The position numbers and the translations under genes are program-made. The notes under the pieces were generated by a model. It saw only the letters and a program-made list of their open reading frames with translations, searched no databases and was not told the origin of the DNA. From Leucoraja ocellata (lineage: Eukaryota), in contig JAWMAR010000070.1 in assembly GCA_036785375.1 (NCBI GenBank), positions 7,130,001 to 7,194,000 of the forward strand: a stretch of 64,000 nt of DNA, written 5' to 3'. Below, piece after piece: positions 1 through 58,939 of this stretch (its first letter is position 1; each line of letters opens with the position of its first letter).

Positions 1-3000
1 GAAAAAAACTGGGGTCTCGGTTAGCGGGTCTGCTTCGTTGAGACACTTGGGTCGTATATTAAAGAGTTAAAAAAGTCAGCCAAATTGAGAAACTGGGGTC
101 TCATTTAGTGGGTCGGCCTGGTTGATATATTTGGAACGATTCGGAATTAAGAAGTCTGTTTTCTCTCTCTCTCTTTCTATCTATCTATGGGGAATGCTAT
201 TGATACCGGTCCTATATATGTGTTATTTGAATCCTATGTATAATAAGAAATTTAGAATGTTAAGTTACAAGTTGACCAAATGGTTAGGGGATGAAGCCTG
301 GCCAGTAGGGGGCACATGGAATGTTGAGACAATTAAATAAGCAGAGGTGTTGATATGGGAAAGGAAGACAGGAAAGAAATGGAAGAAAGGAATTAAAACA
401 TGGAAATCAGGAACAGAGGAGAAGCATGAGGAGAGTAGAGTTCGAAGTTGGATGGATACTACATGTAAGAAGGGGATAGAGTAGGTATGTTACAAAACTT
501 ACCTGAATCGTCAATGAGAATCTGCCATCAGGCCGTGTGCGTGATTTTGGCGCTGTTTAGAGGAGACAGGTTTAAAACGAGATTTTTACTAGGCTGTTGC
601 AATCGAAAATGTTCAGCCTAGTAAATCATTAACGGAGAATCGCTGGGGGACCCCGTCGCAAAGGGTGTTATTGGTTTTTATGGCCTTGTATGGTGGTTGT
701 AGTAGTTTGGAGGTCACTCTCTAGATCCGCGACCTCTCGCAGGCCCAGGGTTTTATAAAGCAAACAATTAAAGGTATGTACCTTATTTTCACATTAAAAG
801 GGGCTTCTTAAGAACCTTAAAGTTTTCTATAGCGAGTAGCTCATTTTGGGCTTTTTATATCCCGCAGTATTTTTCTGGGCATTTGAGGGCACAAATCCAG
901 CGCAATGTGAACGTTCTAAACCAGCGCATTCACAGGAACCCACTAGAAAGCAGATTTAAAATAGACTTTAATTTACAGCAATTGAACACTAAATTCCTTC
1001 CATTTGGCCTATAAATTGATGTAAATGAGATTTAAAAATCATGTTTTATTGTGAATTATTTGTGACTATTATTTGGACACTTAGGCTATTTAAAAATGTT
1101 AATCATTTATTAAGAAATGGATAGATGTTTGGATCTAGTAATTGAAGTTTGAAATTAGCTACAATTGGGTAACTAACTAATTATATGCTTTAATTTCAGG
1201 TCATCCAAGTAAGATTATTTTATATTTGTTTCAGAATGCTTCAATCTATGATAACTGAAAATTTCATTCAGTTCTCTTAATTTTTAAGAAGGTTATGGGC
1301 TTTTGACTGTCCATGATCACAGTTTTTTTGTTATGTCCATAGAAAATCAATAGGGAACAAGATGCTAATTCCCGAGTATGAAAATGGCCATAATTCTTTT
1401 ATTACTTGAGATATGAAAGTGAATTAGGTGTCAAATTAAACTTATTGTTATGCTTTATCTGATGGGATAAATTGCAGACTTGATTTTTTAAATCTCACAA
1501 TTTTGTAACATTGCTAGATAGAGTTAAGAAACAAGGATAGCACTCGGAAAGGATGGAAATTAGTGCAACTAGAATGCCAGTGGGCAGAGGAACAAGAGAA
1601 TAGAATTAAAAGACAGACAGGAGGTGAGAAACAAGTGATGGTTCGTAAAAAATAAACCCAGTACTGGTAAATCCTCTGGAGGAGACTTCATGTCTGGCAC
1701 GACAACCCTATTTGGTAATGAAGATGAGGAGTTAGATAATCTTGAGAGATGTCTACCAGTAGCAATGGCATCTTTACCTGGGACAGTTCCGTCAGTAACA
1801 TCCCTATAACTTGAAGTTCTGACATTACAAAGCTCCCCAGGATTGGGAGCACGGGAATCCCTTTCTGTGTGTAATTTGTTAAGGCATTGATGCTACCAGA
1901 ACAGCTGGTCATTATTAAATGTACTGCACACACTGGTGCTGGGGACCCTATAGCAAAAGGCAATGAGTTGCCGATAGTGTATCCAAACAGGCAGCCTGTA
2001 CATCCAAATGCATAGTGACAGCAGCTAAACAGATGCTAGCAAATAGAACGGTCCTGCCAAACATGAGGGAGGTATGTACATTACAGAGGGACGCCTCTTA
2101 TATATAAAATAATTATGGAAACAAGAGGGCTGTGCCATTAATTCAGCACACCCCGCTTGGACAAGTTGGTGTATACGATACATTTTTACCCGTCTTACCC
2201 ATGCTGGTAAGGAGGGAATGATAGGATAACAAAGGAAATGTGGTGGCACAACAGAAAATTTGATAAGAGGCACTGAAGCAGGCCTCTGAATGTAAAATTT
2301 GCCAATGAAATAATCCAGGCAAACCAATTAGGATACCCTCAGGGGTGACGCCAATGCCATCATGATCGTTTGAATGCATACAGATTGATTTTATTGAGAT
2401 GCCAAGGGCCCAGTGTTATAAATATTGCGTATTGATTTTAGATTTATTTAGTAGGTGGAGTGAAGCTCTACCAACCACCAATAATAAGGAAAATGTGCAC
2501 ATTTTAATATCTGACAGAAATTCACTGTACACACCACCCACTGGTATCTGGGATGGTGGAAAGAGTCAATGGGGATTGCAAAACAAAATTACCCCGGAGG
2601 TAAATCCTTTTCCTGACAAGCAACTATGTTATAAAAATTGGGGATGAAGGAAAATTCAATGGAGAAATGAGGATAGGATAGGGAGACTGAATAGTCAAGG
2701 GCAGTCTGACTAATCATGATCTGGATCAATGTCCAATTAGGGTTAGGTGACCAGGATTTTGGTCAACAGAAGTCTTGTCAGAAAAAGGGAAAGTAAATTA
2801 CAAAGAGATGTCTTTGAAGATGAAATATTATATACTGCTGGTAAAACAATGTTTTTGTATATGTACTGCTTGTAAAACAATGTTTTTTGTATGTGGAATG
2901 TGTGAAATTCGAAGCAATGAGCAAAGTTGTGTGTCGCTTTAAATAGTTTGTCCTTTAAAATGCAAATAGACAAAGTTTATGGTGTGCTCAGTTAAAGAAA

Positions 3001-5151
3001 CAGGCATGAATGGGGGGGTGGAGCTATACTCGATGATAAAATGTGTTGGTTGATTATAAATCTTTTAAACCAAGTTTAAAAAAAAAGACTCATCCCGATT
3101 AAAGTGTTAAATGAGATTGGAAATGTCAAAATTACAGAGAAAAGAAAATGTATTATTGATTACTGATTCTGAATGAGTTTTTTTGGGAAAGATTGTTTTG
3201 ATATGATAACAGAGGTTGTCTTTTAAAATGTAAATGAAGCAAGATTACTGTTTTCAAGCAAACAAAAAGATGTTGCTGTAGCATGTGCTGTGTGAGTGAA
3301 ATGAAGGTAGATGAAAAATTGTTTTATGACTTAAAAAAGGGGGTTTGAGGGAACTCACAATGAGGGATGAAAGGTGAGAAGATAAAGTAGATTGGGGAAG
3401 AGAACATATTTGGAGAATTGAATATTTAGGTGGGGAGAGCCTCTTTGGATATAATCGGATTAAAGGATAAATTCACAGGGAAGTGTTAAGAAGGGACTGG
3501 AGATACTGGAGGATCAAAGGGGGACAAAAGTGCTGGAGAAACAGCTGGTGAACAAGATTCACAACTTTTTATTGATACAGGAAAAGCTGCTCTGTCCACC
3601 CCCTGGAGAGTGGGGGAAAGCCACCTACAGGCCCTGGGCAATTAACTAATTATGTATGGTCGGCAATTAACCCATGTCTTGCCAGATCTACATTCCCAGG
3701 TTGGAGGAGTTTTTGCTGGAAACCAGTGACCAAGGCCATAAAGGCTATACGATGGGGGTGCTGGGACAAGAAGAAATTGAGACTGTTGAAAGAAACAACC
3801 AAGTGTTGCTAACAACATGAACTGCTGTAAAGATGAAAGATCATCGTCGCTGGATACATTTGATTGACTGTGAACAGTTTGTGGAAACAAGGACGATGGG
3901 CTATTGATGCTCCCTTTATTCTGGGGTAGCCCAGCCCACATGGACTGAACTTTCTTCAGAATGGCAAACTTGCAGACTAACCTACATTTAAAGGATGGTA
4001 CACACCTCCTTTTAAAAAAGATTGAAGTCAAACATGACAAGCGCAGCAAAGATACCCTGACTACGGACAGTAAGAGGTCTGCAAAGGCCAGTTAAATCTA
4101 CCTGTTTTTGCCACAACCAAGGCACTGGTGTATATTAAGGAAACAGTATATTTGTGACAGGGCATTGTTATGTTGCAAATGCAGTGCCACACAAGAGAAG
4201 CATGAACCAGTTACACCAGCACACAGGGAATTCCAAATGAAGCCGAATAAAGGCTGAGCAATTTTTATGAACCTTTTCCTGTCCTATGGTAGTATCTTAG
4301 TGTCACATCCGGGGGAGGTTGGTGGCCATTTAAAATGTTTGGAGGGACTTGTGAAACGATTGTCCACTATGAATTGATTGTGCTACTAGTGTACTATTAA
4401 TTTGTCTGATGAGATGCTTATGGTCTTTCGTATGTACTCAGGAAGGACTGCAGTTGTTATCAAAATTTTGATAAAAGGATGGAATGATGAAGCCGAATTT
4501 TAGTTAAAAATATAAGAAGATATTAAATTGGCTTCTGGGCTAGCTTACAGCTTATATTTAGTGTCAAATTAAACTTTCCTCAGGTTGCGGGGTGTGTGAG
4601 ATAACATTGTCTCCCAAGTGAAGGAGCTAGAGAGATATCTTTGAAAGTAAGATGCCATAAACCAAATGACCAATGTTTATGGGGGAGGAGGCAATAAAGG
4701 AAGAGAGAAATAAACAGTCACATCTTTGTAAACAAATGACCTATGTTTATGAGGGACCAAATGACAGAGGAAGCAGCGAAAAGAGCTAGGGTGGTCTATT
4801 TGGAGATAAGGCAAATGGCCAATGTTTTTAGTATATCTTGTACCATGTAAAAAAAAGGTTTGATGTGATGCATTCTGTGGAAACCTTTTCCAGTACCTCT
4901 GACCATGACTAATGTCTGTGGAATGTGATAAGGGGACAAAAAAACCCTATTTAAGGCAATGTAATTCTGTTGTTAAGGGGAGGTGGCTGAGCACAGTCAA
5001 GTGTCTGTGTTGGTCACTTGACTGGAGTTCTCGCTCCCTTCCATCGGCTGATGTTAAGTAAAGTTTTGAACTGGTCTACCAAACAGTTTGTGTGGTGTCT
5101 GTTTATTAAGAAGCGAACCTGGTTTAGTAGTTAAGATAAGTAGCTTTTTCA
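1..5151 (+). mobile_element. Defective class I ERV, copy 1 (5' part lies outside the window; 3' LTR 4485-5151)
   Basis: Decayed RNase H remnant (IKCTAHTG...KGNE, ~1910-1970) and integrase remnant (QIDFIEMP...LDLFSRWSEALPT, ~2380-2480). Purine tract AAAAGGATGGAA, LTR TGATGAAG...TTTTCA, then GTGT. Confidence 0.8.
482..1516. mobile_element. Non-autonomous TIR DNA transposon (hAT-like MITE) nested in the ERV
   Basis: Imperfect TIR TAGGTATGTTACAAAA / TTTTGTAACATTGCTA, flanking direct repeat GATAGAG(T) of 7-8 bp, AT-rich non-coding interior. Confidence 0.65.
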
Positions 5152-5307
5152 GTGTGGTCTATAGATATTGATGACTTCAGTGGAACAAGATGTAAAGAAG
5201 GTGTTTATCCCTCGATCAGCGCATTGAAATCCCTCCTCAACATTAACAGTTCGGAACAATTATTATTTGCATCCCAAGTCAAACTGAACTGCCCTCATTT
5301 GTGTTTA

Positions 5308-5540
5308 AGAAGGAACTGCAGATGCTGGAAAATCGAAGGTAGACAAAAGTGCTGGAGAAACTCAGCGGGTGCAGCAACATCTATGGAGCAAAGGAAATAG
5401 GCAACGTTTTAGGACGAAACCCTTCCGGGTTTGGCCCGAAACGTTGCCTATTTCCAGAAGGGTTTTGGGACGAAATGTTGCCTATTTCCTTTGCTCTATA
5501 GATGCTGCTGCACCCGCTGAGTTTCTCCAGCATTTTTGTC
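5308..5540. repeat. Palindromic dispersed repeat (Penelope-like terminal-repeat derivative); also ~6650-6895, 11416-11530, 37244-37305, 37860-37957 and duplicates
   Basis: AAATGCTGGAGAAACTCAGCGGGTGCAGCAGCATCTATGGAG...GAAACCC followed by its reverse complement. The family assignment is from memory only. Confidence 0.55.
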
Positions 5541-7139
5541 TTCTCTTACTTGTTCCAATCCAGAATATTTTAACAGGTCTGAGCAGCAAAGATGTGCCAT
5601 GGAGTTGCCTTTAGCTGAGTTGAGTCGAGTTGACTTGAGTTTAGTTCAGATTTGTTTAGATTTATACAATGGTATATGGACACACTGATCTGTTCTGTAT
5701 TTGTGCCTACTATGTTCTGTTGTGCTGAAGCAAAGCAAGAATTTCATTGTCCTATCAGGGACACATGACAATAATCTCTCTTGAACACTTGAACTTGAGT
5801 GATCACCCGTACACTAGTTCTAACCTACACACAAGGGACAATTTACTGAAGCCAATTAACCTACAAACCCGCACGTCTTTGACATCTGTGAGGAAACTGT
5901 AGCACCTGGGAGAAACCCTCACGGTCATAGGGAAAAAGTACAACCACCGTACAGACAGTACCTACAGTCAGCATTGAACCCGGGTCACTAGCGCTGTACA
6001 GCAGCAAGTCTACTGCTGTATCACTGAGCCTCCCTTACATTGGCCTCTTGCACAGTTGCAGCAGCTGATTAGAGTCCAGTTTTGACCCTTGTTGGGATTG
6101 TGCAGAAACATAGAAAATTGGTGCAGGAGGAGGCCATTCGGCCCCTCGATCCAGCAGCGCCATTCAATATGATCATGGCTGAACATCCTAAATCACTACC
6201 ACTTTCCTGCTTTCTCCCCATATCCCTTGATTCCGTTAGCACTAAGAGCTTAATCTAACTCTCTCTTGAAAACATCCAGTGAATTGGCCTCCACTGCCTT
6301 CTGTGGCAGAGAATTCCACAGATTCACAATTCTCTGGGTGAAAATGTTTTTTTCATCTCAGTCCTAAATGGCCGACACCTTATTCTTAAACTGTGTGACC
6401 ACTGGTTCTGGACTCCCCCAACATCGGGAATATTTTTCCTGCACCTATCTAGTCTGTCCGATCCCTTAAGAATTTTATATGTTTTTATAAATATGTTCCA
6501 GTCTCATCCTAAATTCCAGTGAATACAAGCACAGTCGATCCATTCCTTCGTCATATGTCAGGGGTGGAAGATTGCAACCTTCACGAGGTCCACCCTGTTT
6601 CGACTAATGCAATCAATTCGACGTGCACAAACGGAAGATCAAATAGAACAAAGGTAGACAAAAATGCTGGAGAGACTCAGCGGGTGCAGCAGCATCTATG
6701 TAGCAAAGGAAATAGGCAATGTTTCGGAACGAAACCCTTCTGGAAATAGGCAACGTTTCAAGCCAAAACCCGGAAGGGTTTCGGCCCGAAACGTTGCCTA
6801 TTTCCTTCGCTCCATAGATGCTGCTGCACCCGCTGAGTTTCTCCAGGATTTTTGTGTACCTTCGATTTTCCAGTATCTGCAGTTTCTTCTTCAACATCAA
6901 ATAGAACAAGTTGTCCTACAACTTTAGGCTGTGCACGCCACACGAAAGAAGAAGTTGACATGTCAGTCCCGCCATCCCGGGTATTAACCTGGTGAACCTA
7001 CGTTGCACTCCCTCAATAGCAATAATGCCCTTCCTCAAGATGACAGTGAAGGGCCGCCACTACACAGACACCCAGTAGACCTGATAGAATGATATAAAAT
7101 TATGAGAGGCGTAGATAGCTGAGATAACCTGAAGCAATT

Positions 7140-7660
7140 TCCCGAAGGCTTTGGAGACGGTGCAGAAACGGTTCCCCAGAATGATGTCGGGATCGGAGGT
7201 TGTTAGTTATATGGACAGGTTGGATAATCTTGGATTGGTTTCTCTAGAACTTCAGATGTTGAGCGGAGACCTGACAGAAGGTAATAAAATTCTTAAGGGG
7301 TTGGACAGGCTAGATGCAGGAACGTTGTTCCCGATGTTGGGGAAGTCCAGAACAAGGGGTCACAGTTTAAGGATAAGGGGGAAATCTTTTAGGACCGAGA
7401 TGAGAAAAACATTTTTCACACAGAGAGTGGTGAATCTGTGGAATTCTCTGCCGCAGAAGGTAGTTGAGGCCACAGTTCATTGGCTTTTTTTAGGAGGGAG
7501 ATAGATGTGGCCCTTGTGGCTAAAGGGATCAGGGGGTATGGAGCGAAGGCAGATACAGGATACTGAGTTGGATGATCAGCCATGATCATATTGAATGGCG
7601 GTGCAGGCTCGAAGGGCCGAATGGTCAACTCCTGCACCTATTGTCTATTGTCTATTGAGA
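7140..7660 (+). mobile_element. CR1 3' fragments (paralogues at ~11775-12300, ~55935-56450, ~60570-61090; related piece ~44274-44663)
   Basis: LKGLDRLDAG...SRTRGHSLRIRG...FFTQRVVNLWNSLP followed by the CR1 3' UTR. Confidence 0.8.
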
Positions 7661-9093
7661 TAGGAAACATTTAAAGATGTGCGAAGCACAGAGGGTGGTG
7701 GGTGCCTGGAACACGATGCTGTGGGTGGTGGAGGCAGATACAATAGTTCAGAGTCTTTATCTAAAAAATCTCATGGATATGCAGGGAATTGAGATTATGG
7801 ATCAGGTGCAGGCAGAGGAGATTAGCTGAACTTGGCAGCATGTTCAGCACGGACCTTGTGGGCCGAAGGGCCTGTTCCTGTGCTGTTCCATGTTCTATGT
7901 TACATCATCTTCTCAATCACATCTTGAGAAGAACATTTTCCAGAGGTGCCCTGGTACCACCAGTGTGACATTCATTGTATCTGCTGCAGTCAATGAGTGT
8001 GTTGTGTAGACAGCCAGAGGAGAAGATGGGATTTATGTGCAGTTTCATTTTGTAATCATTATTTATTTAATGTCATAGTGTAATAGAGTCATAGAGTGAT
8101 ACAGCGTGGAAACAGGCCCTTCGGCCCAACTTGCCCACACTGGCCAACATGTCCCAGCTACACTAGTCTCACCTGCCTGTGTTTGGTCCATATCCCTCCA
8201 AACCTGTCCTCTCCATGTACATGACTCACTGTTTCTTAAACATTGGGATCTAAATGTTGCCTCACCAACGCAAGATGACCTCCCAACCTCTATACTCCAT
8301 ACTGTGACTGATGAAGGCCAAAGTACCAAAAGCCATTTTGACCACCGTATCTATCAACTGCATCTTCAAGGAACCATGTACCTTCACTCATAGATCCCTC
8401 TGCTATACAACATTCCCCAGAGCTGGACTATTCACTGTGTAGGTCCTGCACATGTTAGAAACATAGAAACATAGAAACTAGGTGCAGGAGTAGGCCATTC
8501 AGCCCTTCGAGCCTGCACCGCCATTCAATATGATCATGGCTGATCATCCAACACAGTTTCCAGTACTTGCCTTCTCTCCATACCCTCTGATCCCCTTAGC
8601 CACAAGGGCCACATCTAACTCCCTCTTCAATATAGCCATTGAATTGGCCTCGACTACCCTCTGGTTACCCTCTCCCCAAGACTCCCCAAAACACAACACC
8701 TCACATTACTCTGTATTAAATTCCATCAACCGTTCCTCAGCCCAACTGGCCAATATTTCAGGATCCTGCTGCAATTTTTCACAACCATCTCCACTATCTG
8801 CAAAACCGCCTACTTTAGTGTCATAGAAACATAGAAAATAGGTGCAGGAGTAGAGGCCATTCGGCCCTTCAAGCCTGCACCGCTATTCAATATGATCATG
8901 GCTGATCATCCAACTCAGTATCCTGTACCAGCCTTCTCTCCATACCCCCTGATCCCTTTAGCCACAAGGGCCACATCTAACTCCCTCTTAAATATAGTCA
9001 TCTGCCTTTACTTCTGTTCCTGTTCTCAACATTTTCCACATGTTGTTCCGTCCCCGTGTGGTCATGGACAATGTTGGACACAGCTCATAGAAG

Positions 9094-9199
9094 CCGGCGA
9101 TGTTGCCCGTAGTGAGCAAGAGTTGCACAAAGTTCACACCCAACTCAATGCTGGCGTACAAAGAATCACTCACACCGGCTGTCTTCAAGAGAGTTTATT
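9094..9199 (-). terminator. Poly(A) signal AATAAA (9194-9199) plus conserved GT-rich downstream element of A1 (also 41168-41173 for A2 and 57987-57992 for A1')
   Basis: AATAAA followed by TGAAGACAGCCGGTGTGAGTGATTCTTTGT..., a block shared with the type B genes. Confidence 0.55.
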
Positions 9200-9633
9200 T
9201 CCATTAATGATACATTTACCAATGCAAGCACGATCTGTCCCATTGCACTACATTTGCCCCATATCCCCCTAAACCTTTCCCTGTCCCAAGTGTGTATTAA
9301 ATATTGTTACAATTCCCACCCCACCAGACAGTTCTATAAACCCACCGCCCCCTGAGTGAAAATGTTGCCCCTCAGGTTCCTATTAAATCTTGCCCCTCTA
9401 ACCTTAAACTTATGTCCCCCTGGTTCTTGATTCCCGTACCCCAGGTAAAAGATGTTTTGTGTTCACCCCTCTATTCCCCTCATGATGAATTAAGTGACTA
9501 CAATATAGAATGCTGTTGTTGGCCTAAGTATGTGAAGTTTATAATGATGGATGTTACTGTGTGTTTGTGCTGTCCTGCCACTGTCTGTTGCTTCTGTGAC
9601 ATGGGGGGGCCTGTGCTGGGTCAGTGTGAGGTT

Positions 9634-10146
9634 TCACATCACTGTCAGCTTGATATTTAGTCTACATTCCTCTTTGCCAGTGAACCAAGCGCAGGAATAC
9701 ATCCCAACATCACTCTTCTGTAAACCCGTGATGACCAACGAGGCATCCCGTGTCCCATCCACGTTTGTTTCCTTGAACGACCAGCGGCCGGCCCCCCCTG
9801 GATAGGTCGCACCTTTCCCTTTAGTAAACACGGCCAATGTCCCCTTCCCTTTACTCCAGGTGACAGCAAAGTTGCTGGGTCCATCCTTCCCTGTGGGTAC
9901 TTTACAGGGTAGCGTAGCAGAACCACCCTTTGCCGTCACATCCGTGTATTTCATCTTGTTCGCAGCTGGCCTAGCACCGCATTCTGGAGTATCTTGTTTG
10001 TTGACTTGTCGAGGCTCCCGTGCGTTCCACCCGGGCAAGTTTGCTTCCTCTCCCCATTCTCTGGAGATCGGACCTGTTCCAGTTGCGGAGACTTGCCACA
10101 CCATCTCCACAAGGACCATGAATCCTATCCATCTCTGCAGTCCCAT
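9634..10146 (-). CDS. Secreted single V-set Ig-domain protein, type A copy 1 (170 aa, single coding exon)
   Basis: ATG at 10146 follows a polypyrimidine-CAG acceptor. Hydrophobic leader MGLQRWIGFMVLVEMVWQVSA, pro-segment ending NAREPR/QV, and V-set motifs GGSATLPC, VTWSK, DASLVITGLQKSDVGMYSC and CRLNIKLTV. A stop follows directly, with no TM. Confidence 0.85.
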   Translation of the reverse strand: MGLQRWIGFMVLVEMVWQVSATGTGPISREWGEEANLPGWNAREPRQVNKQDTPECGARPAANKMKYTDVTAKGGSATLPCKVPTGKDGPSNFAVTWSKGKGTLAVFTKGKGATYPGGAGRWSFKETNVDGTRDASLVITGLQKSDVGMYSCAWFTGKEECRLNIKLTVM

Positions 10147-10795
10147 GTTCCTGTGGGTGAAACAATGGGTCACCTTATTGCAACTCAGTAGGATTCATGA
10201 TGACATTCCCTGAACCCGCCCAGAGTTGGGGAATCGAGAACCAGAGGACATCGGTTTAAGGCGAGGGGGGGGGGGAAAGATTTAATGGGAAACTGAGGGG
10301 TGACTTTTTTACACAAAGGGTGGAGGGTGTTTGGAACGAGCTGCCGGAAGAGGTAGTTGGGGCAGGTACTATCACAATGATTAAGAAACAGTTAGACAGG
10401 TACATTGATAGGACAGGATTAGAGGGGTAAGGGCCAAACGCAGGCAGGTGGGTCTAGTATTGATGGGACACGTTGGTGGGCGTGGGCAAGTTGGGCCGAA
10501 GGTCTCGCTGTGACTCTATGACTCCATCACTTGTCCCACCCCGGTCATTCCTCCTTCTCCCTGGTCCTGTCTAGCAGAAGGTACAGAAGCTTGAAAGCGC
10601 GCACCACCAGACTCAGGAACAGCTTCTTCCCCTCTGCTATCAGGCTTCTGAACTGGGGGAACAGTGAACAGAGACAATCCCACCCCCATCACTCACAGAC
10701 ACTTGAAGGATCCACAGGGTTGGTTACCAGCTCCGGAGTCTCCACACAGGGTGACGGGGTCGGTCTTGTTCTCATCCCCTGCCATCGCTCGCTCC

Positions 10796-10872
10796 TTTTA
10801 TACCGACTCCCGGCTTCTCCTGCCCCTCATTGTCTGTCCTCACGTACATTCAACCAATCACTGCCTCCCACG
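10796..10872 (-). promoter_or_regulatory. Promoter of gene A1: ERSE (10854-10872) and TATA box (10796-10802)
   Basis: CCAATcactgcctcCCACG on the + strand. TATAAAA on the - strand, ~650 bp upstream of the ATG. Confidence 0.6.
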
Positions 10873-13027
10873 GAGCATTGGCCGGAGTCAGCCGCGACCT
10901 CTCCACCCTCTGCCAAACGTGTCGTTGCATCAGCCGTTAACGTTTAACAAGAACAACGTCATCCCAGCTGCCAGCGGCCAACCAGGCGCCCCACACATCC
11001 TGCTTGTGTCTCCACCACGTCTCGCTTTGGCCACCCATCGGACCAGATGTCCCAGCCACGCCACGTCACCACCACAGCCCTTGGCACCTGCGCTGGTTCC
11101 ACAGTTTATACTCAATCTGAGCCGGCAGCTGGGATGGCGTTGGATCAATTCTTCCTTCCCAACAACCATCAGGCTGTTGAACACGACACGACACTGAGGT
11201 CAACGATGAACGTCTATGGAATGTCCAAGGTTGCACTAATGCCCCTGTCCCACTTAGGAAACCTGAACGGAAACCTCTGGAGACTTAGCGCCCCACCCAA
11301 GGTTTCCGTGCGGTTCACGGAGGTTTTTGTCTGTCTCCCTACCTGCTTCCACTACCTGCAACCTCCGGCAACCACCTGCAACCTCCGGGAACCACCTGCA
11401 ACCTCCGGGAACCTTCGGGACGAAACGTTGCCTATTTCCTTCACTCCATAGATGCTGCTGCACCCGCTGAGTTTCTCCAGCATTTTTGTGTACCTTCGAT
11501 TTTCCAGTATCTGCAGTTTCTTCTTCAACATCAAATAGAACAAGTTGTCCTACAACTTTAGGCTGTGCACGCCACACGAAAGAAGAAGTTGACATGTCTG
11601 TCCCGCCATCCCGGGTATTAACCTGGTGAACCTACGTTGCACTCCCTCAATAGCAAGAATGCCCTTCCTCAAAATGACAGTGAAGTGCTGCCTCTACAGA
11701 GACACCCAATAGACCTGATAGAATGGTATAAAATGATGAGAGGCGTAGATAGCTGAGATAACCTGAAGCAATTTCCCGAAGGCTTTGGAGACGGTGCAGA
11801 AGCAGTTCCCCAGAATGATGTCGGGATCGGAGGTTGTTAGTTATATGGACAGGTTGGATAATCTTGGATTAGTTTCTCTAGAACTTCAGATGTTGAGCGG
11901 AGACCTGACAGAAGGTAATAAAATTCTTAAGGGGTTGGACAGGCTAGATGCAGGAACGTTGTTCCCGATGTTGGGGAAGTCCAGAACTAGGGGTCACAGT
12001 TTAAGGATAAGGGGGAAATCTTTTAGGACCGAGATGAGAAAAACATTTTTCACACAGAGAGTGGTGAATGTGGAATTCTCTGCCACAGAAGGTATTTGAG
12101 GCCAGTTCATTGGCTATATTTAAGAGGGAGTTAGATGTGGCCCTTGTGGCTAAAGGGATCAGGGGGTATGGAGAGAAGGCAGGTACTGGATACTGAGTTT
12201 GATGATCAGCCATGATCATATTGAATGGCGGTGCAGGCTCGAAGGGCCGAATGGCCTCTACTCCTGCACCTATTGTCTATTGTCTACTGTCTATTGTCTA
12301 TTGAGATAGGAAACATTTAAAGATACAAGTGGAGGTAGTTACAATAGTTCAGAGACTTTATCTAAAAAATCTCATGGTCATGCAGGGAATTGAGATTATG
12401 GATCAGGTGCAGGCAGAGGAGATTAGCTGAACTTGGCATCATGTTCAGCACGGACCATGTGGGCCGAAGGGCCTGTTCCTGTGCTGTTCCATGTTCTATG
12501 TTACATAGTCTTCTCAATCACATCTTGAGAAGAACATTTTCCAGAGGTGCCCTGGTACCACCAGTGTGACATTCATTGTATCTGCTGCAGTCAATGAGTG
12601 TGTTGTGTAGACAGCCAGAGGAGAAGATGGGATTTATGTGGAGTTTCATTTTGTAATCATTATTTATTTAATGTCATAGTGTAATAGAGTCATATAGTGA
12701 TACAGTGTGGAAACAGGCCCTTCGGCCCAACTTGCCCACACTGGCCAACATGTCCCAGCTACACTAGTCCCACCTGCCTGTGTTTGGTCCATATCCTTCT
12801 AAATCTGACCTATACCTGTTCCTGTTTAACTGTTTCTTAAACGTCGGGATAGTTTCTGCCTCAACAGCGATGAGTTGACCAGAACGAGACGTGGTGGAGA
12901 CACAAGCAGGATGTGTGGGGCGCCTGGTTGGCCGCTGGCAGCTGGGATGACGTTGTTCTTGTTAAACGTTAACGGCTGATGCAACGACACGTTTGGCAGA
13001 GGGTGGAGAGGTCGCGGCTGACTCCGG

Positions 13028-13113
13028 CCAATGCTCCGTGGGAGGCAGTGATTGGTTGAATGTACGTGAGGGCAGACAATGAGGGGCAGGAGAAGCCGGG
13101 AGTCGGTATAAAA
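13028..13113 (+). promoter_or_regulatory. Promoter of gene B1: CCAAT (13028), ERSE (13037-13055) and TATA (13107-13113)
   Basis: CGTGGgaggcagtgATTGG is the reverse of CCAAT-N9-CCACG. TATAAAA follows. Conserved in all 8 copies. Confidence 0.65.
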
Positions 13114-13134
13114 GGAGCGAGCGATGGCAGGAGA

Positions 13135-13755
13135 TGAGAACAAGACCGACCCCGTCACCCTGTGTGGAGACTCTGGAGCTGGTAACCAACCCTGTGGATC
13201 CTTCAAGTGTCTGTGAGTGATGGGGGTGGGATTGTCTCTGTTCACTGTTCCCCCAGTTCAGAAGCCTGATAGCAGAGGGGAAGAAGCTGTTCCTGAGTCT
13301 GGTGGTGCGCGCTTTCAAGCTTCTGTACCGTCTGCTAGACAGGACCAGGAAGAAGGAGGAATGACTGGGGTGGGACAAGTGGTGGAGTCATAGAGTCACA
13401 GCGAGACCTTCGGCTCAACTTGCCCGCGCCCACCAACGTGTCCCCATCAATACTAGACCCACCTACCTGCGTTTGGCCCTTACCCCCCTAATCCTGTCCT
13501 ATCAATGTACCTGTCTAACTGTTTCTTAATCATTGTGACAGTACCTGCCTCAACTACCTCTTCCGGCAGCTCGTTCCAAACACCCTCCACCCTTTGTGTA
13601 AAAAAGTCACCCCTCAGTTTCCCATGAAATCTTTCCCCCCCTCGCCTTAAACCGATGTCCTCTGGTTCTCGATTCCCCAACTCTGGGCGGGTTCAGGGAA
13701 TGTCATCATGAATCCTACTGAGTTGCAATAAGGTGACCCATTGTTTCACCCACAG
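13135..13755 (+). other. Predicted non-coding exon 1 and ~550-bp intron of gene B1 (donor GTAACC 13182 or GTGAGT 13213; acceptor AG ends 13755)
   Basis: TSS expected ~30 nt after the TATA box. Consensus donors and a polypyrimidine-CAG acceptor 4 nt before the ATG. The intron is filled with LINE/SINE debris. Confidence 0.55.
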
Positions 13756-13759
13756 GAAC

Positions 13760-14299
13760 ATGGGACTGCAGAGATGGATAGGATTCATGGTCCTTGTGGA
13801 GATGGTGTGGCAAGTCTCCGTAACTGGAACAGGTCCGATCTCCAGAGAATGGGGAGAGGAAGCAAACTTGGCCGGGCGGAACGCACGGGCGTATTTCAAA
13901 GTCACCAATAAACCGCTTCCAAGATGCACGAACGAGTCAGATTCTGATGCCATCAGTCATCACCCATCACCGATTAACAAGAAGGTGCTCGTTGCATCTC
14001 TGGGCGGTTCTGTTACGTTGCCATGTAATATATCCATCCTTAAAAATCATTACAGGTTTGTTGAATGGATAAAAGATGGTGTTGAAATTGCCCATTTCCA
14101 TGAGAGAGCGTATGCGCATTATACGGGATCTGATGTTCACTGGAAGTTCGTTGATCACGACGTCTATGTGACTCAGGACGCCACGTTGCTCCTGACAGGT
14201 GTAAAAGAGGAAGATAAAGGGACGTATTCCTGTGTTTGGTCCGTGTATAGAGATAGACCGTTTTGTGAATTATTGATGCAGCTGATGATCTCTCACTGA
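13760..14299 (+). CDS. Secreted single V-set Ig-domain protein, type B copy 1 (179 aa)
   Basis: Same leader as type A. V-set motifs GGSVTLPC, VEWIKDG, DATLLLTGVKEEDKGTYSC and CELLMQLMIS. Acceptor TTGTTTCACCCACAG ends at 13755. Confidence 0.85.
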   Translation: MGLQRWIGFMVLVEMVWQVSVTGTGPISREWGEEANLAGRNARAYFKVTNKPLPRCTNESDSDAISHHPSPINKKVLVASLGGSVTLPCNISILKNHYRFVEWIKDGVEIAHFHERAYAHYTGSDVHWKFVDHDVYVTQDATLLLTGVKEEDKGTYSCVWSVYRDRPFCELLMQLMISH

Positions 14300-15142
14300 T
14301 TCAGCAGGGCCAGTCCCAGGGTCAGTAGCAAAGTCTAGTTTAGTTTAGTTTTGTTCAGAGGTACAACAGGGAAACAAGCCCTTCGGCCACAGAGTCAATG
14401 GGGACCAGTGATCACCCCATATACTAGTTCTATCCCACACACTAGATACAATTTACACTGACCAATTAACCTACAAACCTGCACGTCTCTGGGGTGTGGG
14501 ACGAAACCGGAGCACCCGGATTCCAAAGAGGAAGGAAGATTCCAAGGGGAGTTAGGGGCGACCGTGGCTGACAAGGGAAGTCAGGGACACTATCACAATA
14601 AAAGAGAACAGGTATAACGTTGCAAAGATGAGCGGAAAGCCAGGGGATTGGGTAACTCTTTTAAAGAGCAACAGAAGATAACTAAAAAAGCAATACGGGG
14701 AGAAATGATGAGGTATGAAGGTAAGATAGCCAAGAATAGTAAGGAGGATCGTAAAAGCTTCTTTAGATATGTGAAAAAAATTAGTTCAGACTAAAATTGG
14801 ACCTTTATAGACTAAAAACTTTGGATCCGTCTTCACTAAGGAGAACACAAACAATCTCCCTGATGTATTAGTGGTCAGAGGATCTGGGGACAACGGAGAG
14901 CCAGTGGATGTAGTGTACCTGGACTTGCAGGAAGTATTTGATAAGGTCCCACATAGGAGATTAGTGGGCAAAATTAGAGCACATGGTATTGGGGGAAGGG
15001 CCTGTTTCCATATTGTTTGACTCTGACACTAAGTAGGGAAGAGTAAAGGTATAAAGATGAGCAGCGTGGAAGGTGTGAGCGTGGATCGCATGCAGTGAGG
15101 AGAACTGACCTTGCTTGCTCCGGTAAATGTACGTTTAATGTA

Positions 15143-35061: not shown

Positions 35062-35616
35062 ATGGGACTGCAGAGATGGATAGGATTCATGGTCCTTGTG
35101 GAGATGGTGTGGCAAGTCTCCGCAACTGGAACAGGTCCAGAATGGTCTCCAGAGAATGGGGAGAGGAAGCAAACTTGGCCGGGCGGAACGCACGGGCCCC
35201 TCAGCAAGTCAACAATGAACCGCTTCCAAGATGCACGAATGACTTAGATTCTGACAGTGATCACGGTGCATCGAATAGCGATATTAGGCTCATTGCATCT
35301 CCGGGTGATTCTTTGACGCTGCCCTGTAAAATATCCAAAGATTACAAACAACTCTGGTTAGTTCAGTGGAGACAAAACGATGTTGAAATTAACAATTATA
35401 ATGAGAAAACGTTTGATGAATATACGGGATCTGATGTCCGCTGGATATTTGTGGATCTAGAATTCCTTTGGGACTGGGACGGCTCGTTGCTCCTGAGGCA
35501 TAAAAGAGAAAGATGAAGGGATATATTCCTGTGTTTCGTTCATTGATACTCATGTGTTATGTGAAGAATTGGCCCAGCTGACAATCCTCCCAGTGATTCA
35601 GCAGGGCCCGACCTAG
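35062..35616 (+). pseudogene. Frameshifted divergent B-related V-set gene (acidic variant)
   Basis: Same leader. Net +5 nt at ~35139 (GGTCC AGAATGG TCTCC vs GGTCC GA TCTCC) and a 2-nt loss at ~35496 break the frame. Remnant motifs GDSLTLPC, VQWRQND, DGSLLL and DEGIYSC...LCEELAQLTI. Confidence 0.8.
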
Positions 35617-36759: not shown

Positions 36760-39700
36760 GCTAGTTTGTACTAGGAAATGTAATGTCCTGCAGATCTTTG
36801 CTGTAAGTAGATTTAATAAACATGTGTTGTATCTTGATATGTGTCCGACTCAGCTCATTACATGATGTCCACCATGTCATGTTTTTTTAATTAGGTTATG
36901 TGTCTACTATATCCATCATGACACATTTTTGTCGCCTTCCTAGTCCTGTGATCTTTGACTCTGACACTGCTGAACTCTGACGTCTTTTCGAGCATGACTA
37001 CACTCATTATGCTGGCATTGTTCATCTCAACGACCCCCCCCCCCAATGTGCGTGCTTTTGTGTTGCTCAACTTAGCGGGACCTGAAGCTATGAATCGCGC
37101 TGGCAATTTCACATTTGAGCCTGCTGTTCTGGATGCTAATGGTCAGGTCCTGGCGCCTGCTGAGACGAATGACGACCCTGCTGTCTTTCTTGCAAAGTTC
37201 AGATGGTTGTGTGACCTGCACTCAAACTATATTATTGAACGGAGGTACACAAAAATGCTGGAGAAACTCAGCGGGTGCAGCAGCATCTATGGAGCGAAGG
37301 AAATAGAAACATAGAAACATAGAAACATAGAAACATAGAAATTAGGTGCAGGAGTAGAGGCCATTCGGCCCTTCGAGCCTGCACCGCCATTCAATATGAT
37401 CATGGCTGATCATCCAACTCAGTATCCCATACCTGCCTTCTCTCCATACCCCCTGATCCCCTTAGCCACAAGGGCCACATCTAACTCCCTCTTAAATATA
37501 GCCAATGAACTGGCCTCAACTACCCTCTGTGGCAGAGAGTTCCAGAGATTCACCACTCTCTGCGTGAAAAAAGTTCTTCTCATCTCGGTTTTAAAGGATT
37601 TCCCCTTTATCCTTAAGCTGTGACCCCTTGTCCTGGACTTCCCTAACATCGGGAACAATCTTCCTGCATCTAGCCTGTCCAACCCCTTAAGAATTTTGTA
37701 AGTTTCTATAAGATCCCCTCTCAATCTTCTAAATTCTAGAGAGTATAAACCAAGTCTATCCAGTCTTTCTTCATAAGACAGTCCTGACATCCCAGGAATC
37801 AGTCTGGTGAACCGTCTCTGCACTCCCTCTATGGCAATAATGTCCTTCCAGGCCAAAACCCTTCTTCAGACAGGTTTCGGCCAGAAACGTTGCCTATTTC
37901 CTTCGCTACATAGATGCTGCTGCACCCGCTGAGTTTCTCCAGCATTTTTGTCTACCTTTGTTCCATTTGATCTTCCGTTTGTGCACGTCGAATTGATTGC
38001 ATTAGTCGAAACAGGGCGGACCTCGTGAAGGTTGCAATCTTCCACCCCTGACATATGACGAAGGAATGGATCGAATGTGCTTGTATTCACTGGAATTTAG
38101 GATGAGACTGGAACTTATAAAAACATATAAAATTCTTAAGGGATCGGACAGACTAGATAGATGCAGGAAAAATGTTCCCGATGTTGGGGGAGTCCAGAAC
38201 CAGTGGTCACACAGTTTAAGAATAAGGTGTCGGCCATTTAGGACTGAGATGAAAAAAACCTTTTCACCCAGAGAGTTGTGAATCTGTGGAATTCTCTGCC
38301 ACAGAAGGCAGTGGAGGCCAATTCACTGGATGTTCTCAAGAGAGAGTTAGATTAAGCTCTTAGTGCTAACGGAATCAAGGGATATGGGGAGAAAGCAGGA
38401 ACGGGGTAATGATTTAGGATGTTCAGCCATGATCATATTGAATGGCGGTGCTGGATCGAGGGGCCGAATGGCCTCCTCCTGCACCAATTTTCTATGTTTG
38501 TGCACAATCCCAACAAGGGTCAAAACTGGACTCTAATCAGCTGTTGCAACTGTGCAAGAGGCCAATGTAAGGGAGGCTCAGTGATACAGCAGTAGACTTG
38601 CTGCCGTACAGCGCTAGTGACCCGGGTTCAATGCTGACTGTAGGTACTGTCTGTACGGTGGTTGTACTTTTTCCCTATGACCGTGACGGTTTCGCCCAGG
38701 TGCTACAGTTTCCTCACAGATGTCAAAGACGTGCAGGTTTGTAGGTTAATTGGCTTCAGTAAATTGTCCCTTGTGTGTAGGTTAGAACTAGTGTACGGGC
38801 GATCACTCAAGTTCAAGATTCAAGAGAGTTTATTGGCATGTGTCCCTGATAGGACAATGAAATTCTTGCTTTGCTTCAGCACAACAGAATATAGTAGGCA
38901 TTTACTACAGAACAGATCAGAGTTTCTCCAGCATTTTTGTGTTCCTTTGATCTTCCAGCATCTGCAGTTCCTTCTTGAGCATATTATTGAACGGACCAAG
39001 TTTTATGCTCGTATGCAACAGGTTGGTGAACCAAAGGTTTTATCAGTGACTTAAAACAAATGGCTGCACGCTGCTAATTTCGAGATCTGTGCGATGAACT
39101 CATCCATGACAAAGTTGTCGGAGGAATGCTTGATAGCAAGTTACGGGGTGAACTTCTTTGTAATACTGACCTAACCCTTAATCAAGCAGAGCATGCCTGT
39201 TGGATGCTGAGATAACATCTTCCCACACTGAGTCTGTGTCCTCTGGTCACTGTTCGCAGCATAGTGTTAATCTTGCAGACTACTCCTCTTGTAACACCCA
39301 CACAAGGTCTGTTCGATGTCAAAATTGCAACTATTTTCTTGCTAGGTGTCAGCAGTTCTGCGTTGCTTATGGTAAAGCCTGTAATTTCTGCAAGAAGTTA
39401 AACCACTTTTCTCGATGCTGCCGTTCCCGTGTGACTCAAGCAGCGTCAAGGATGAGCCTGCACCTGCTGCAACATGAGCTTGTTGATAATGACTTCCAAG
39501 AGCTTGATTTGCCATCCCCCGCTCCACTCTCAGAAAGTACAGATACCAGTTCTGCAACCCATTCTCCCCTCCCTTCGTCTAACAAGCAACTTGACCCTGA
39601 GGTAACCATGTTTGTGATTAACAGGCCTTTAATCGCTAAGGTTGATACTGGCACAAAATGCAATGTCATCTCGTTAACAGAGTTTTAAAAATTCGTTATG

Positions 39701-40816
39701 CTGCATGTATTGAAAAGGCCTCGGCCACGCTTTGGACTTACGGGGGAGATGTTCTACACCCTCTTGGACAAGCTGATTTAAAGTGCACCATAGACAAGCA
39801 GACTCATACTTTAAAGGTTTATATTGTTAAGGGGGATTCAGAGACTTTGCTCAGTATCAACGCAATCCACGATCTAGGCCTGGTATAGTTTGGCTACGCC
39901 GTCCATCAAGACTTTCTCGCTGATGGACACACTCAACAGGTACTCTCTCAATACAAAGATCTGTTTAACGCCAAGCTTAGCAAATTGCCTATCAAATACC
40001 ACATTGTTGTCGATCCCAACATAACTCCTGTGGTCCGAGAACCGCATCATGCTCTGCACGCCATGCGTGGCAGAGTAAACAATGAACTCAAGCGGATGGT
40101 CTCCATGGGTGTTATTGCCGAGGTTACAGACCCATCTGACTGGGTTTCCACAATGGTGGTCGCAACAAAGAAAAACAAAGAGGAGATCCATATCTGCATA
40201 AACCCCAGAGACCTTAACTGCCATCAAACGGCCACACTACCCAATGCGATTATTAGAGGAAGTTGCTGCTCAGGTAGGCAACACTTCAGTATTCTCCATT
40301 CTGGATGCCAAGAGCTCATTTTGGAAGATTCCACTGGACCCAGACACGTCAAATCTCATTTCATTCGGCACCCCCTTTGGCCGATACAAATTTCTGAGAA
40401 TGCCCTTTGGCATCAACTCTGCCAGCGACGTTTTCCAGCGCACGATGGAACAATTGTTTGTTGAGTACCCATGTGCCATCATTGTTGATGACATTCTCGT
40501 CTACAGACGTGATTGGACTGAACATGACGCCAATCTGAAGAAAGAACTATACAATGCCAAAGACATTCAGCTCAAACTCAATCCCTTGAAGGGCAAGTTT
40601 CGAGTTCCAGAAGATACTGACGTTGGACATGTCTTCACAAGTGATGGTCTCAGACCAGACCCATCAAAAACTGCACCTATCAACAAAATGCCGGTTCCTT
40701 GGAATGGTCAACTACCAGGGGAAATTTATTCCCAACCTCAGCGACATATCTGCCCCCTGTGGGAACTGACACACAAGGACGCTGCATGGTCATGGTATCC
40801 GCAGCACCAAAGAGTT
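36760..40816 (+). mobile_element. Decayed Ty3/Gypsy LTR retrotransposon (gag-pro-RT remnants), interrupted at 37244-38980
   Basis: Zn knuckle CNFCKKLNHFSRCC, protease KVDTGTKCNVI, RT LDAKSSFWKI...RMPFGI...IVDDILVY. Many stops and frameshifts. Boundaries are approximate. Confidence 0.8.
37306..37848 (-). mobile_element. CR1 3' fragment with (TTTCTATG)n tail
   Basis: ORF 37419..37856 is the CR1 ORF2 C-terminus. (ATAGAAAC)n at 37302-37340. Confidence 0.85.
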
Positions 40817-41607
40817 TTCCATCAACCGTTCCTCAGCCCACCTGGCCATTATTTCAGGATGCTGCTGCAATTTATCACAACCATCTCCACTATCTGCAAA
40901 ACCGCCTACTTTTGTGTCATCTCCCTTTACTTCTGTCCCTGTTTTGTTCCTGACAACATTCCCTTTTACTTTTGTTCCTGTTCTCAACACCTGCGGACTC
41001 CATGATTTTCCACATGTTGTTCCGGCCCCGTGTGGTCATGGACAATGTTGGACACAGCTCATAGAAGCCGGCGATGTTGCCCGTAGTGAGCAAGAGTTGC
41101 ACAAAGTTCACACCCAACTCAATGCCGGCGTACAAAGAATCACTCACACCGGCTGTCTTCAAGAGAGTTTATTTCCATTAATGATACATTTACCGATGCA
41201 AGCACGATCTGTCCCATTGCACTACATTTGCCCCATATCCCCCTAAACCTTTCCCTGTCCCAAGTGTGTATTAAATATTGTTACAATTCCCACCCCACCA
41301 GACAGTTCTATAAACCCACCGCCCCCTGAGTGAAAATGTTGCCCTTCAGGTTCCTATTAAATCTTGCCCCTCTAACCTTAAACTTATGTCCCCCTGGTTC
41401 TTGATTCCCGTACCCCAGGTAAAATATGTTTTGTGTTCACCCCTCTATTCCCCACATGATGAATTAAGTGACTACAATATAGAATGCTGTTGTTGGCCTA
41501 AGTATGTGGAGTTTATAATGATGGATGTTATTGTGTGTTTGTGCTGTCCTGCCACTGCCTGTTGCTTCTGTCACATGGGGGGGCCTGTGCTGGGTCAGTG
41601 TGAGGTT

Positions 41608-46702: not shown

Positions 46703-47735
46703 TAGGTATGTTACAAAACTTACCTGAATCGTCAATGAGAATCTGCCATCAGGCCGTGTGCGTGATTTTGGCGCTGTTTAGAGGAGACAGGTTTAAAACG
46801 AGATTTTTACTAGGCTGTTGCAATCGAAAATGTTCAGCCTAGTAAATCATTAACGGAGAATCGCTGGGGGACCCCGTCGCAAAGGGTGTTATTGGTTTTT
46901 ATGGCCTTGTATGGTGGTTGTAGTAGTTTGGAGGTCACTCTCTAGATCCGCGACCTCTCGCAGGCCCAGGGTTTTATAAAGCAAACAATTAAAGGTATGT
47001 ACCTTATTTTTACATTAAAAGGGGCTTCTTAAGAACCTTAAAGTTTTCTATAGCGAGTAGCTCATTTTGGGCTTTTTATATCCCGCAGTATTTTTCTGGG
47101 CATTTGAGGGCACAAATCCAGCGCAATGTGAACGTTCTAAACCAGCGCATTCACAGGAACCCACTAGAAAGCAGATTTAAAATAGACTTTAATTTACAGC
47201 AATTGAACACTAAATTCCTTCCATTTGGCCTATAAATTGATGTAAATGAGATTTTAAAATCATGTTTTATTGTGAATTATTTGTGACTATTATTTGGACA
47301 CTTAGGCTATTTAAAAATGTTAATCATTTATTAAGAAATGGATAGATGTTTGGATCTAGTAATTGAAGTTTGAAATTAGCTACAATTGGGTAACTAACTA
47401 ATTATATGCTTTAATTTCAGGTCATCCAAGTAAGATTATTTTATATTTGTTTCAGAATGCTTCAATCTATGATAACTGAAAATTTCATTCAGTTCTCTTA
47501 ATTTTTAAGAAGGTTATGGGCTTTTGACTGTCGATGATCACAGTTTTTTTGTTATGTCCATAGAAAATCAATAGGGAACAAGATGCTAATTCCCGAGTAT
47601 GAAAATGGCCATAATTCTTTTATTACTTGAGATATGAAAGTGAATTAGGTGTTAAATTAAACATTGTTATGCTTTATCTGATGGGATAAATTGCAGACTT
47701 GATTTTTTAAATCTCACAATTTTGTAACATTGCTA
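46703..47735. mobile_element. Duplicate of the hAT-like MITE in ERV copy 2
   Basis: Same TIRs and flanks as 482..1516. Confidence 0.65.
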
Positions 47736-58000: not shown

Positions 58001-58426
58001 TGATACATTTACCAATGCAAGCACGATCTGTCCCATTGCACTACATTTGCCCCATATCCCCCTAAACCTTTCCCTGTCCCAAGTGTGTATTAAATATTCT
58101 TACAATTCCCACCCCACCAGACAGTTCTATAAACCCACCGCCCCCTGAGTGAAAATGTTGCCCCTCAGGTTCCTATTAAATCTTGCCCCTCTAACCTTAA
58201 ACTTATGTCCCCCTGGTTCTTGATTCCCGTACCCCAGGTAAAAGATGTTTTGTGTTCACCCCTCTATTCCCCTCATGATGAATTAAGTGACTACAATATA
58301 GAATGCTGTTGTTGGCCTAAGTATGTGAAGTTTATAATGATGGATGTTACTGTGTGTTTGTGCTGTCCTGCCACTGCCTGTTGCTTCTGTGACATGGGGG
58401 GGCCTGTGCTGGGTCAGTGTGAGGTT

Positions 58427-58939
58427 TCACATCACTGTCAGCTTGGTATTTAGTCTACATTCCTCTTTGCCAGTGAACCAAGCGCAGGAATACATCCCAA
58501 CATCACTCTTCTGTAAACCCGTGATGACCAACGAGGCATCCCGTGTCCCATCCACGTTTGTTTCCTTGAACGACCAGCGGCCGGCCCCCCCTGGATAGGT
58601 CGCACCTTTCCCTTTAGTAAACACGGCCAATGTCCCCTTCCCTTTACTCCAGGTGACAGCAAAGTTGCTGGGTCCATCCTTCCCTGTGGGTACTATACAG
58701 GGTAGCGTAGCAGAACCACCCTTTGCCGTCACATCCGTGAATTTCATCTTGTTCGCAGCTGGCCTAGCACCGCATTCTGGAGTATCTTGTTTGTTGACTT
58801 GTCGAGGCTCCCGTGCGTTCCACCCGGGCAAGTTTGCTTCCTCTCCCCATTCTCTGGAGATCGGACCTGTTCCAGTTGCGGAGACTTGCCACACCATCTC
58901 CACAAGGACCATGAATCCTATCCATCTCTGCAGTCCCAT
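58427..58939 (-). CDS. Secreted single V-set protein, type A copy 1' (segmental duplicate of 9634..10146)
   Basis: Differs from A1 by 3 aa (Y>F, K>I, I>T). Offset 48793. Confidence 0.85.
   Translation of the reverse strand: MGLQRWIGFMVLVEMVWQVSATGTGPISREWGEEANLPGWNAREPRQVNKQDTPECGARPAANKMKFTDVTAKGGSATLPCIVPTGKDGPSNFAVTWSKGKGTLAVFTKGKGATYPGGAGRWSFKETNVDGTRDASLVITGLQKSDVGMYSCAWFTGKEECRLNTKLTVM

Follow-up and report, generated by a model that had tools for sequence, protein, structure and literature searches.

The 64,000-nt stretch of Leucoraja ocellata DNA analysed here (the window) is repeat-rich eukaryotic DNA, in which LINE fragments lie among eight copies of one V-domain gene. These copies belong to a multigene family whose single V-set domain is of nectin/PVR type, an origin that is well supported, and which in the B type of the family is under strong positive selection on one face of the modelled domain. 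The reading preferred here, with a probability of about 0.5, is that the products are likely secreted single V-domain proteins, likely nectin/PVR-derived, that would bind variable microbial ligands or serve as decoys for them. Secreted IgV families diversified in the germline are already known; what appears to be new is a nectin-derived single-exon version in a cartilaginous fish, nested among chitinase genes and placed behind a homogenised cassette of ERSE promoter and signal sequence. No published description of the family was found under its gene identifiers, multigene families of secreted Ig proteins in skates, elasmobranch V-set/nectin expansions or chitinase-linked clusters, in a search of main texts mostly outside subscription.

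The layout of the reference copy, B1 (Table 1), comprises a predicted signal peptide (approximately residues 1–21, called from hydropathy and by eye), an acidic pro/linker region with an RxxR motif and Cys56, a V-set domain at residues 73–179 and a stop codon. The RxxR motif of the acidic linker is found at 51 of the 52 intact loci, and the stop codon falls right after strand G, in the same exon, at all 52; the 11 database proteins end alike. Each of the seven proteins scanned gave a single PF07686 V-set match and no CBM14 match. The family retains the core Trp and four cysteines, with extra cysteines at 56 and 169. Secretion is likely, as predicted from the leader and the absence of an anchor from the coding exon, and both a Cys56–Cys169 disulfide and processing at RxxR are predicted from the sequence.

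Table 1. Features of copy B1 and positions of the other gene copies in the window
Feature	Position	Strand	Basis or remark
ERSE, B1 proximal promoter	13037..13055	-	match to CCAAT-N9-CCACG consensus, predicted
TATA box	13105..13115	+	motif in 58/58 loci
Exon 1, likely untranslated, start unmapped	13126..13212	+	joined to exon 2 in L. erinacea models and Logan protein P0010
Intron GT..AG, 543 nt	13213..13755	+	donor motif 57/58, acceptor motif 57/58 loci
B1 coding exon, 179 aa	13760..14299	+	PF07686 E 4e-8; fold model
Homogenised 5' coding cassette, codons 1-43	13760..13888	+	fourfold-site comparison
Variable patch 1 (91-104): BC loop, C strand	14030..14071	+	selected sites 98, 100, 102, 104
Variable patch 2 (109-122): C' strand, C'C'' loop and C'' strand	14084..14125	+	selected sites 109, 112, 115, 118, 120, 122
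Variable patch 3, DE loop (132-138)	14153..14173	+	selected sites 132, 133, 136, 137, 138
Variable patch 4 (161-168): last part of F, FG loop and first part of G	14240..14263	+	selected sites 161, 162, 164, 165, 168
Candidate poly(A) signal AATAAA	14597..14602	+	motif match
Copy B2, 178 aa	20898..21434	+	
Copy B3, 178 aa	27400..27936	+	
Frameshifted copy (pseudogene)	35062..35599	+	another subfamily
Copy B4, 179 aa	62553..63092	+	B1-like, intact
A-type copy, 170 aa	9634..10146	-	basic; retains the AX6G lock; head to head with B1
A-type copy, 171 aa	41608..42123	-	
A-type copy, 170 aa	58427..58939	-	head to head with B4

The ERSE consensus, taken from the accessible text of PMC8301375, is matched eight times in the window, once per gene copy, as compared with 0.12 matches expected; it is present at all 58 loci retrieved from the genome and at no position in 180 kb of flanking DNA. 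Exon 1 contains an ATG that is in frame at 55 of the 58 loci and out of frame in both copies on contig C16, and MGLQ is therefore the likely start. In the 900-nt contig of Logan protein P0010, exon 1 is joined to exon 2; because the unspliced form needs approximately 1150 nt, an A-type relative would be spliced in some run.

A genome search returned 61 matches corresponding to 59 loci, 57 of which form a 525-kb array on contig C70 (6.99–7.52 Mb) and two of which lie on C16; 58 of the 59 were retrieved, one frameshifted locus being left out. The retrieved loci comprise 52 intact ORFs, 41 distinct coding sequences and 37 distinct proteins, and 7 of the 59 are broken. The B type accounts for 24 loci (19 distinct coding sequences, 16 proteins) and the A type for 20. 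GH18 chitinase genes border the array and also lie between its copies, which form blocks of 32 and 24. Since 23 of the 24 second-block copies have at most 17 differences per 1100 nt from a first-block copy, the blocks are either two haplotypes or the outcome of a recent duplication; the haploid number is possibly 24–32. In run X1 the contig depth is 1084 for exon 1, 61 for the B1 type and 89 for the B4 type, in line with many copies, although depth of this kind does not measure copy number and the assembly may itself derive from this run.

A sequence-only reading of this DNA had claimed that the B copies share identical frameworks and differ in four CDR-like patches. All 15 motifs quoted for it (frameworks DGVEIA, GSDVHWKFV and CELLMQLMISH among them) were found in frame on the plus strand where it had placed them, and the one-codon indel in the CDR1-like patch (VSNVDNSPTVT in B2/B3) was confirmed. 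B1 and B2 differ at 27 of the 107 domain residues (73–179). The patch differences between B1 and B2/B3 are real, with 24 of these 27 falling into the four patches, which cover 32 of the 107 sites; the differences form 6 clusters vs 15.5 expected, and none of 100,000 permutations gave as few. The three differences beyond the patches are at I104, H112 and T122. Strands E–F and G are free of any nucleotide change between B1 and B2, and the linker (44–72) holds approximately 12 further nonsynonymous changes. The identity of the frameworks holds among B1–B3, but it breaks down across the 16 distinct B proteins, in which positions 109 and 112 each show four residues and positions 153 and 176 vary. 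In addition, parts of the supposed loops are β-strand in the B1 model, i.e., 100–102 (strand C), 118–120 (strand C'') and 161 (the end of strand F). The variable patches recur as contigs in runs X1 and X3, and assembly errors are therefore not their source, with the qualification that these runs are possibly the assembly's own source runs.

Positive selection on the B domain was investigated with codon models, which allow single-nucleotide changes only, fitted to 17 distinct B domains. M0 gave an omega of 3.0; the comparison of M1a with M2a gave a 2ΔlnL of 78.8, with omega2 of approximately 14 at 27% of sites and the same result from several starts, that of M8a with M8 likewise 78.8, and the selection test on six lineages 80.8. 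Because the paralogues recombine, a separate tree was used for each of four segments in the neutral simulations, in which the statistic reached a maximum of 6.5 in 38 replicates. A tree-free count gave a dN/dS of 1.70 for the whole domain (78 N, 15 S, p 0.033), with a pairwise Fisher p of 0.021 for B1 and B2. The ratio is 2.41 in the variable regions, which were chosen after the fact, 0.35 in the rest of the domain, indicating purifying selection, and 0.96 in the linker, i.e., approximately neutral; for the A clade alone it is 1.42 (p 0.09). Selection on the B domain is thus strong, with codon models that assume single-nucleotide changes; many B codons differ at two or three bases, and multi-nucleotide changes inflate site tests.

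These values bear on the alternative that the family is a neutral patchwork, produced by duplication, gene conversion, mutation-prone patches and tolerant loops, or that its copy number is inflated by the assembly. The recent 99% duplications, the two blocks that may be two haplotypes and the 7 broken loci among 59 speak for such an origin. However, dN exceeds dS without a tree, the test statistics lie far above the neutral simulations and the rest of the domain is held at 0.35; the variation tracks the outward face, the ERSE, the TATA box, the core Trp and all four cysteines have been retained, and half the array would still amount to 24–32 copies, which together make this explanation highly improbable.

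The location of the selected sites (posterior above 0.95; 21 sites) was analysed on the B1 model, which has a pLDDT of 68–92 in ten-residue blocks of the domain and is poor before residue 72. The modelled strands are C (100–105), C' (108–114), C'' (118–121), F (154–161) and G (167–178), and inward and outward positions were assigned via DSSP and strand alternation from the core Trp and Cys. Nine of the 21 sites lie on front-sheet strands and 12 in loops, with none on B, D or E; selection reaches 9 of the 15 outward front-sheet positions, 0 of the 16 inward positions and 0 of the 13 back-sheet positions. By strand alternation, none of the selected sites faces inward. Divided otherwise, nine sites fall in CDR1–3 equivalents (whose boundaries are approximate), five in the DE loop and seven elsewhere. 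The CDR-like character noted earlier stands as an enrichment, with 9 of 25 CDR1–3-equivalent sites selected vs 12 of 82 others (p 0.023), and 14 of 32 when the DE loop is included (p 1e-4). The further claim that the variation is confined to such loops is not supported, as 12 of the 21 sites are outside the CDR1–3 equivalents and 9 are on outward front-sheet strand positions. Among the nectin interface-motif positions, 7 of 14 are selected (p 0.006); patch 2 contains the nectin lock position (A111..118) and patch 4 the key position (162–164). In the model, the variable surface comprises the upper GFCC'C'' face together with the BC, DE and FG loops; it is bigger than a CDR tip, and at its centre lies the ancestral nectin interface.

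The enrichment in the CDR1–3 and DE equivalents (14/32), together with the presence of some antibody V domains among the profile matches listed, would suit an antigen-receptor-like family, i.e., a relative of antibodies, VNARs or TCRs that binds through the CDR tip and possibly diversifies somatically. The recombination signal sequence (RSS) consensus is a heptamer and a nonamer separated by a 12- or 23-nt spacer. A scan for it gave no RSS at any of the 52 intact loci and three loose matches in 58 loci, all of them in two pseudogene loci and more than 760 nt from the ATG. The J motif (F/W)GxG is absent from all 31 aligned sequences, and the coding exon stops after strand G with no constant domain. 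In addition, each copy has its own promoter, the variants are genomic, the fold and motifs are those of nectin/PVR and seven selected sites lie outside CDR1–3 and the DE loop. This relationship is accordingly very unlikely, and membership in an antigen-receptor family is largely refuted by the lack of RSS and J motif and by the nectin/PVR fold. The sequence-only description of the surface as antibody-like is thus not supported, given a nectin/PVR-like domain with half of its 14 interface-motif positions selected, while its proposal of a germline-encoded, diversified putative binding surface on a V-set domain is borne out by the positive selection and by the genomic variants.

Several lines of evidence point to a nectin/PVR-type ancestor. 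All of the top ten Foldseek matches to the B1 model are PVR or nectin-1/2/4, and the best single-domain profile match is PVR (44.9 bits vs approximately 28 for JAML and CD226); the top-ranked match in the Atlas is a TIGIT-like cluster. No CEACAM is among the 60 profile matches listed or the fold matches listed. The 90% database, searched over lengths of approximately 92–382 aa, contains seven skate clusters, all "uncharacterized" (Leucoraja erinacea, Rhinoraja longicauda), to which a wider profile added one protein of the electric ray Narcine bancroftii, P0079, named "nectin-1-like". This protein is the sole non-skate match to the whole profile among the best 150 matches of a full HMMER scan, and it aligns with the family end to end (hhalign 99.7%, 29% identity), with the same leader, PRQ linker and four cysteines and without an anchor. 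Its best non-family matches in the L. ocellata genome are nectin-1 and a second nectin-1-like V exon. In the accessible text of PMC5966540, the nectin interface is described as made up of a key in FG (TFP/TYP), a lock in C'C'' (AX6G) and residues of the C strand; the Narcine protein has the lock AX6G and the key TYP in register. The nectin origin is well supported because of the nectin/PVR fold, the sequence matches and the lock and key of Narcine; in the family tree, two nectins form the outgroup and long branches join there. A V-only nectin derivative may thus have arisen in batoids, the electric-ray protein retaining lock and key.

Members of the nectin/PVR family have further C2 domains as well as a transmembrane segment and tail. 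The skate proteins share the fold with the V domains of nectins, PVR (CD155), TIGIT and CD226, show 21–31% identity to skate nectin-1 V and have lock and key residues in part of the copies, and their diversified sites include the canonical interface motifs. Unlike nectins, they consist of one domain without C2, membrane anchor or tail, their leader and V domain share one exon, and the family has two extra cysteines, dozens of positively selected paralogues and a B clade that has lost the lock; they are not full members of the nectin family. Of the 111 C2-set_2 matches, obtained with 150 of 438 candidates scored, none lies on C70. Among the 52 intact loci, the lock is present as AX6G at 14 and as GX6G at 6, all A type, and the key (Y/F)P is in register at 4 and absent from B1–B4. 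The lock glycine is missing from all 24 B loci, and the B clade therefore likely does not bind nectins any more.

The retained motifs, both of them intact in Narcine, would be expected if the proteins were soluble modulators of the skate's own nectin network (nectins, PVR and TIGIT/CD96/CD226-like receptors), with each subfamily tuned to a host partner; the TIGIT-like top match and the conservation of subfamilies between skates are consistent with this role. However, it is made unlikely by the loss of the lock glycine at 24 of 24 B loci, and by the diversification of lock and key positions (7/14), in contrast to the high conservation of skate nectin-1 (E 2e-52 against human nectin-1). The nectin-1 V and C2 exons lie at C34:8874829-8884017 (L052, L053), and the second nectin-1-like V exon, 45% identical to nectin-1 V, at C1288:252001-252345 (L055). 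C2-set_2 (PF08205) exons form a very large family in this genome, with dozens of near-equal matches arranged in tandem on C478, C508, C1051, C1278, C428, C352 and many small contigs.

In contrast to the V domain, the 5' part of the gene is nearly uniform. The block from approximately −890 to +130 shows 97–99% identity to B1 in copies with domains 61–72% identical (two of them with an intron indel), and the intron is 97–98% identical between subfamilies with such domains. At fourfold sites, B1 and seven C70 subfamily representatives differ at 0 of 20–22 in codons 1–43 and at 4–10 of 15–23 in the V domain, and identity falls sharply past codon 43; upstream of the C16 copies it is only approximately 90%. 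This homogenisation is most simply explained by gene conversion between the copies of the array, which would thereby all stay under one promoter. Within the domain, 231 of 990 informative site pairs show four-gamete conflicts (35/211 near pairs, 122/447 far pairs), and whole patches are common to different B subgroups. Conopeptide and amphibian skin peptide precursors have a comparable near-invariant signal/pro region, even at synonymous sites, and a hypervariable mature part. In the skate genes, by contrast, a folded Ig domain makes up the mature part, and the invariant block reaches approximately 900 nt upstream through intron and promoter.

These observations suggest a scheme in which the V-only nectin derivative was expanded in skates by tandem duplication inside the chitinase cluster. 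Gene conversion would preserve one promoter–intron–signal cassette, and this shared cassette (ERSE and TATA) may lead to co-expression and secretion of all copies by one set of highly secretory cells. The GFCC'C'' face and the loops BC, DE and FG would be diversified and recombined through point mutation, selection and micro-conversion, and the front face would bind varied ligands. A decoy or recognition role is preferred because of the analogy with bat PSGs and VCBPs and because viruses engage the V domain of nectin-1, as seen in the titles of structure entries for solved complexes. The same pattern in bat PSGs is interpreted as a decoy function in the accessible text of PMC5594555. The near identity of some subfamilies to the L. 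erinacea proteins P0004 and P0006 (branch lengths of 0.009 and 0.027) agrees better with fixed specialised ligands than with an ongoing arms race.

Reproductive proteins would account equally well for selection on a secreted surface. The products may be components of secretions from reproductive organs or glands (egg-case jelly, or the oviducal, seminal or clasper gland) that bind a host ligand and were diversified by sperm–egg recognition, sexual conflict or chemical signalling, and several features agree with this: the conserved prepro cassette with a hypervariable mature part, the RxxR motif at 51 of 52 loci, the ERSE promoter and an expansion found only in egg-laying skates. Nectins function in sperm–Sertoli adhesion, and the mammalian chitinase locus contains oviductin. 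Feto-maternal regulation is retained as an alternative for bat PSGs in the accessible part of PMC5594555. However, the many coexisting, recombining paralogues in one genome would suggest diverse ligands over one host receptor, and the reproductive role is regarded as possible but clearly less probable than microbial decoys or binders. More doubtful is a specific form of the microbial reading, in which an innate, "secreted nanobody-like" nectin repertoire, co-regulated and patch-shuffling, would be secreted with the neighbouring chitinases into chitin-containing mucus to bind viruses or microbes, as a vertebrate convergence on VCBPs alongside adaptive immunity.

Among known systems, the secreted CEACAM/PSG proteins of bats and horses, as far as the accessible text of PMC5594555 describes them, are likewise a lineage-specific expansion of secreted one- or two-domain IgV proteins derived from a pathogen-exploited adhesion receptor, with IgV domains under diversifying selection and a decoy hypothesis. 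They belong to the CEA family, have separate leader, N and C exons and are mammalian/placental, whereas the skate genes are nectin-like, with a single coding exon and a homogenised promoter–signal cassette. The VCBPs of amphioxus and Ciona (PMC7916673, accessible text) are also germline-diversified secreted V domains with hypervariable sites on β-sheet surfaces and a link to chitin, which in skate exists by locus only; however, a single VCBP chain carries a chitin-binding domain besides two V domains, while the skate proteins have one V domain, no chitin-binding domain and chitinase/CBM14 genes as neighbours. The MDIR of clearnose skate, carp SITR and CD300, according to the accessible sections of PMC3031540, are similarly fish multigene Ig-type innate receptors, SITR being secreted, but they are CD300/pIgR-like with a YWCR motif. 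In the skate family, which is nectin-like, this motif and the CD300-type second disulfide are absent; it has YSC/YTC and a different cysteine pattern, with cysteines 56 and 169.

An undescribed, strongly selected multigene family is thus added to cartilaginous-fish biology, and it would be a second independent case, after CEACAM/PSG, of an adhesion/virus-entry receptor domain giving rise to a secreted family that expands. With a uniform cassette next to a selected domain, this 1.5-kb gene offers a clean test bed for the action of gene conversion and diversifying selection, and the small V domain, with two predicted disulfides and natural variation on one face, is a candidate binding scaffold.

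Further features of the array and the window were observed. The A-type mature domains of the window (Table 1) have a pI of 8.9–9.9 and almost no N-glycosylation sites, and the non-A subfamilies have a pI of 5.0 to 9.1, with sequons in most; A and B genes are arranged head to head. The C16 copies (1774984 and 1786230; L047, L034), one intact and one truncated, keep the ERSE and TATA in promoters approximately 90% identical; they escaped homogenisation and resemble the Rhinoraja protein. GH18 chitinase matches of the genome are concentrated in one C70 cluster (57 of 61; 6.93–7.96 Mb, L062-L070) amid the V-domain array, and the exon L070:4696-5304 encodes three CBM14 chitin-binding domains. Within the window, positions 1-14598 and 46222-63391 form a repeat of approximately 15 kb (99.3% identical), the second copy of which is enlarged by a 2.6-kb insertion, where a seemingly intact LINE reverse-transcriptase ORF of 744 aa lies at 49530-51764. 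Positions 39182-41005 contain pieces of a Gypsy-like LTR element, whose zinc-knuckle, protease and reverse-transcriptase-like ORFs were assigned by eye.
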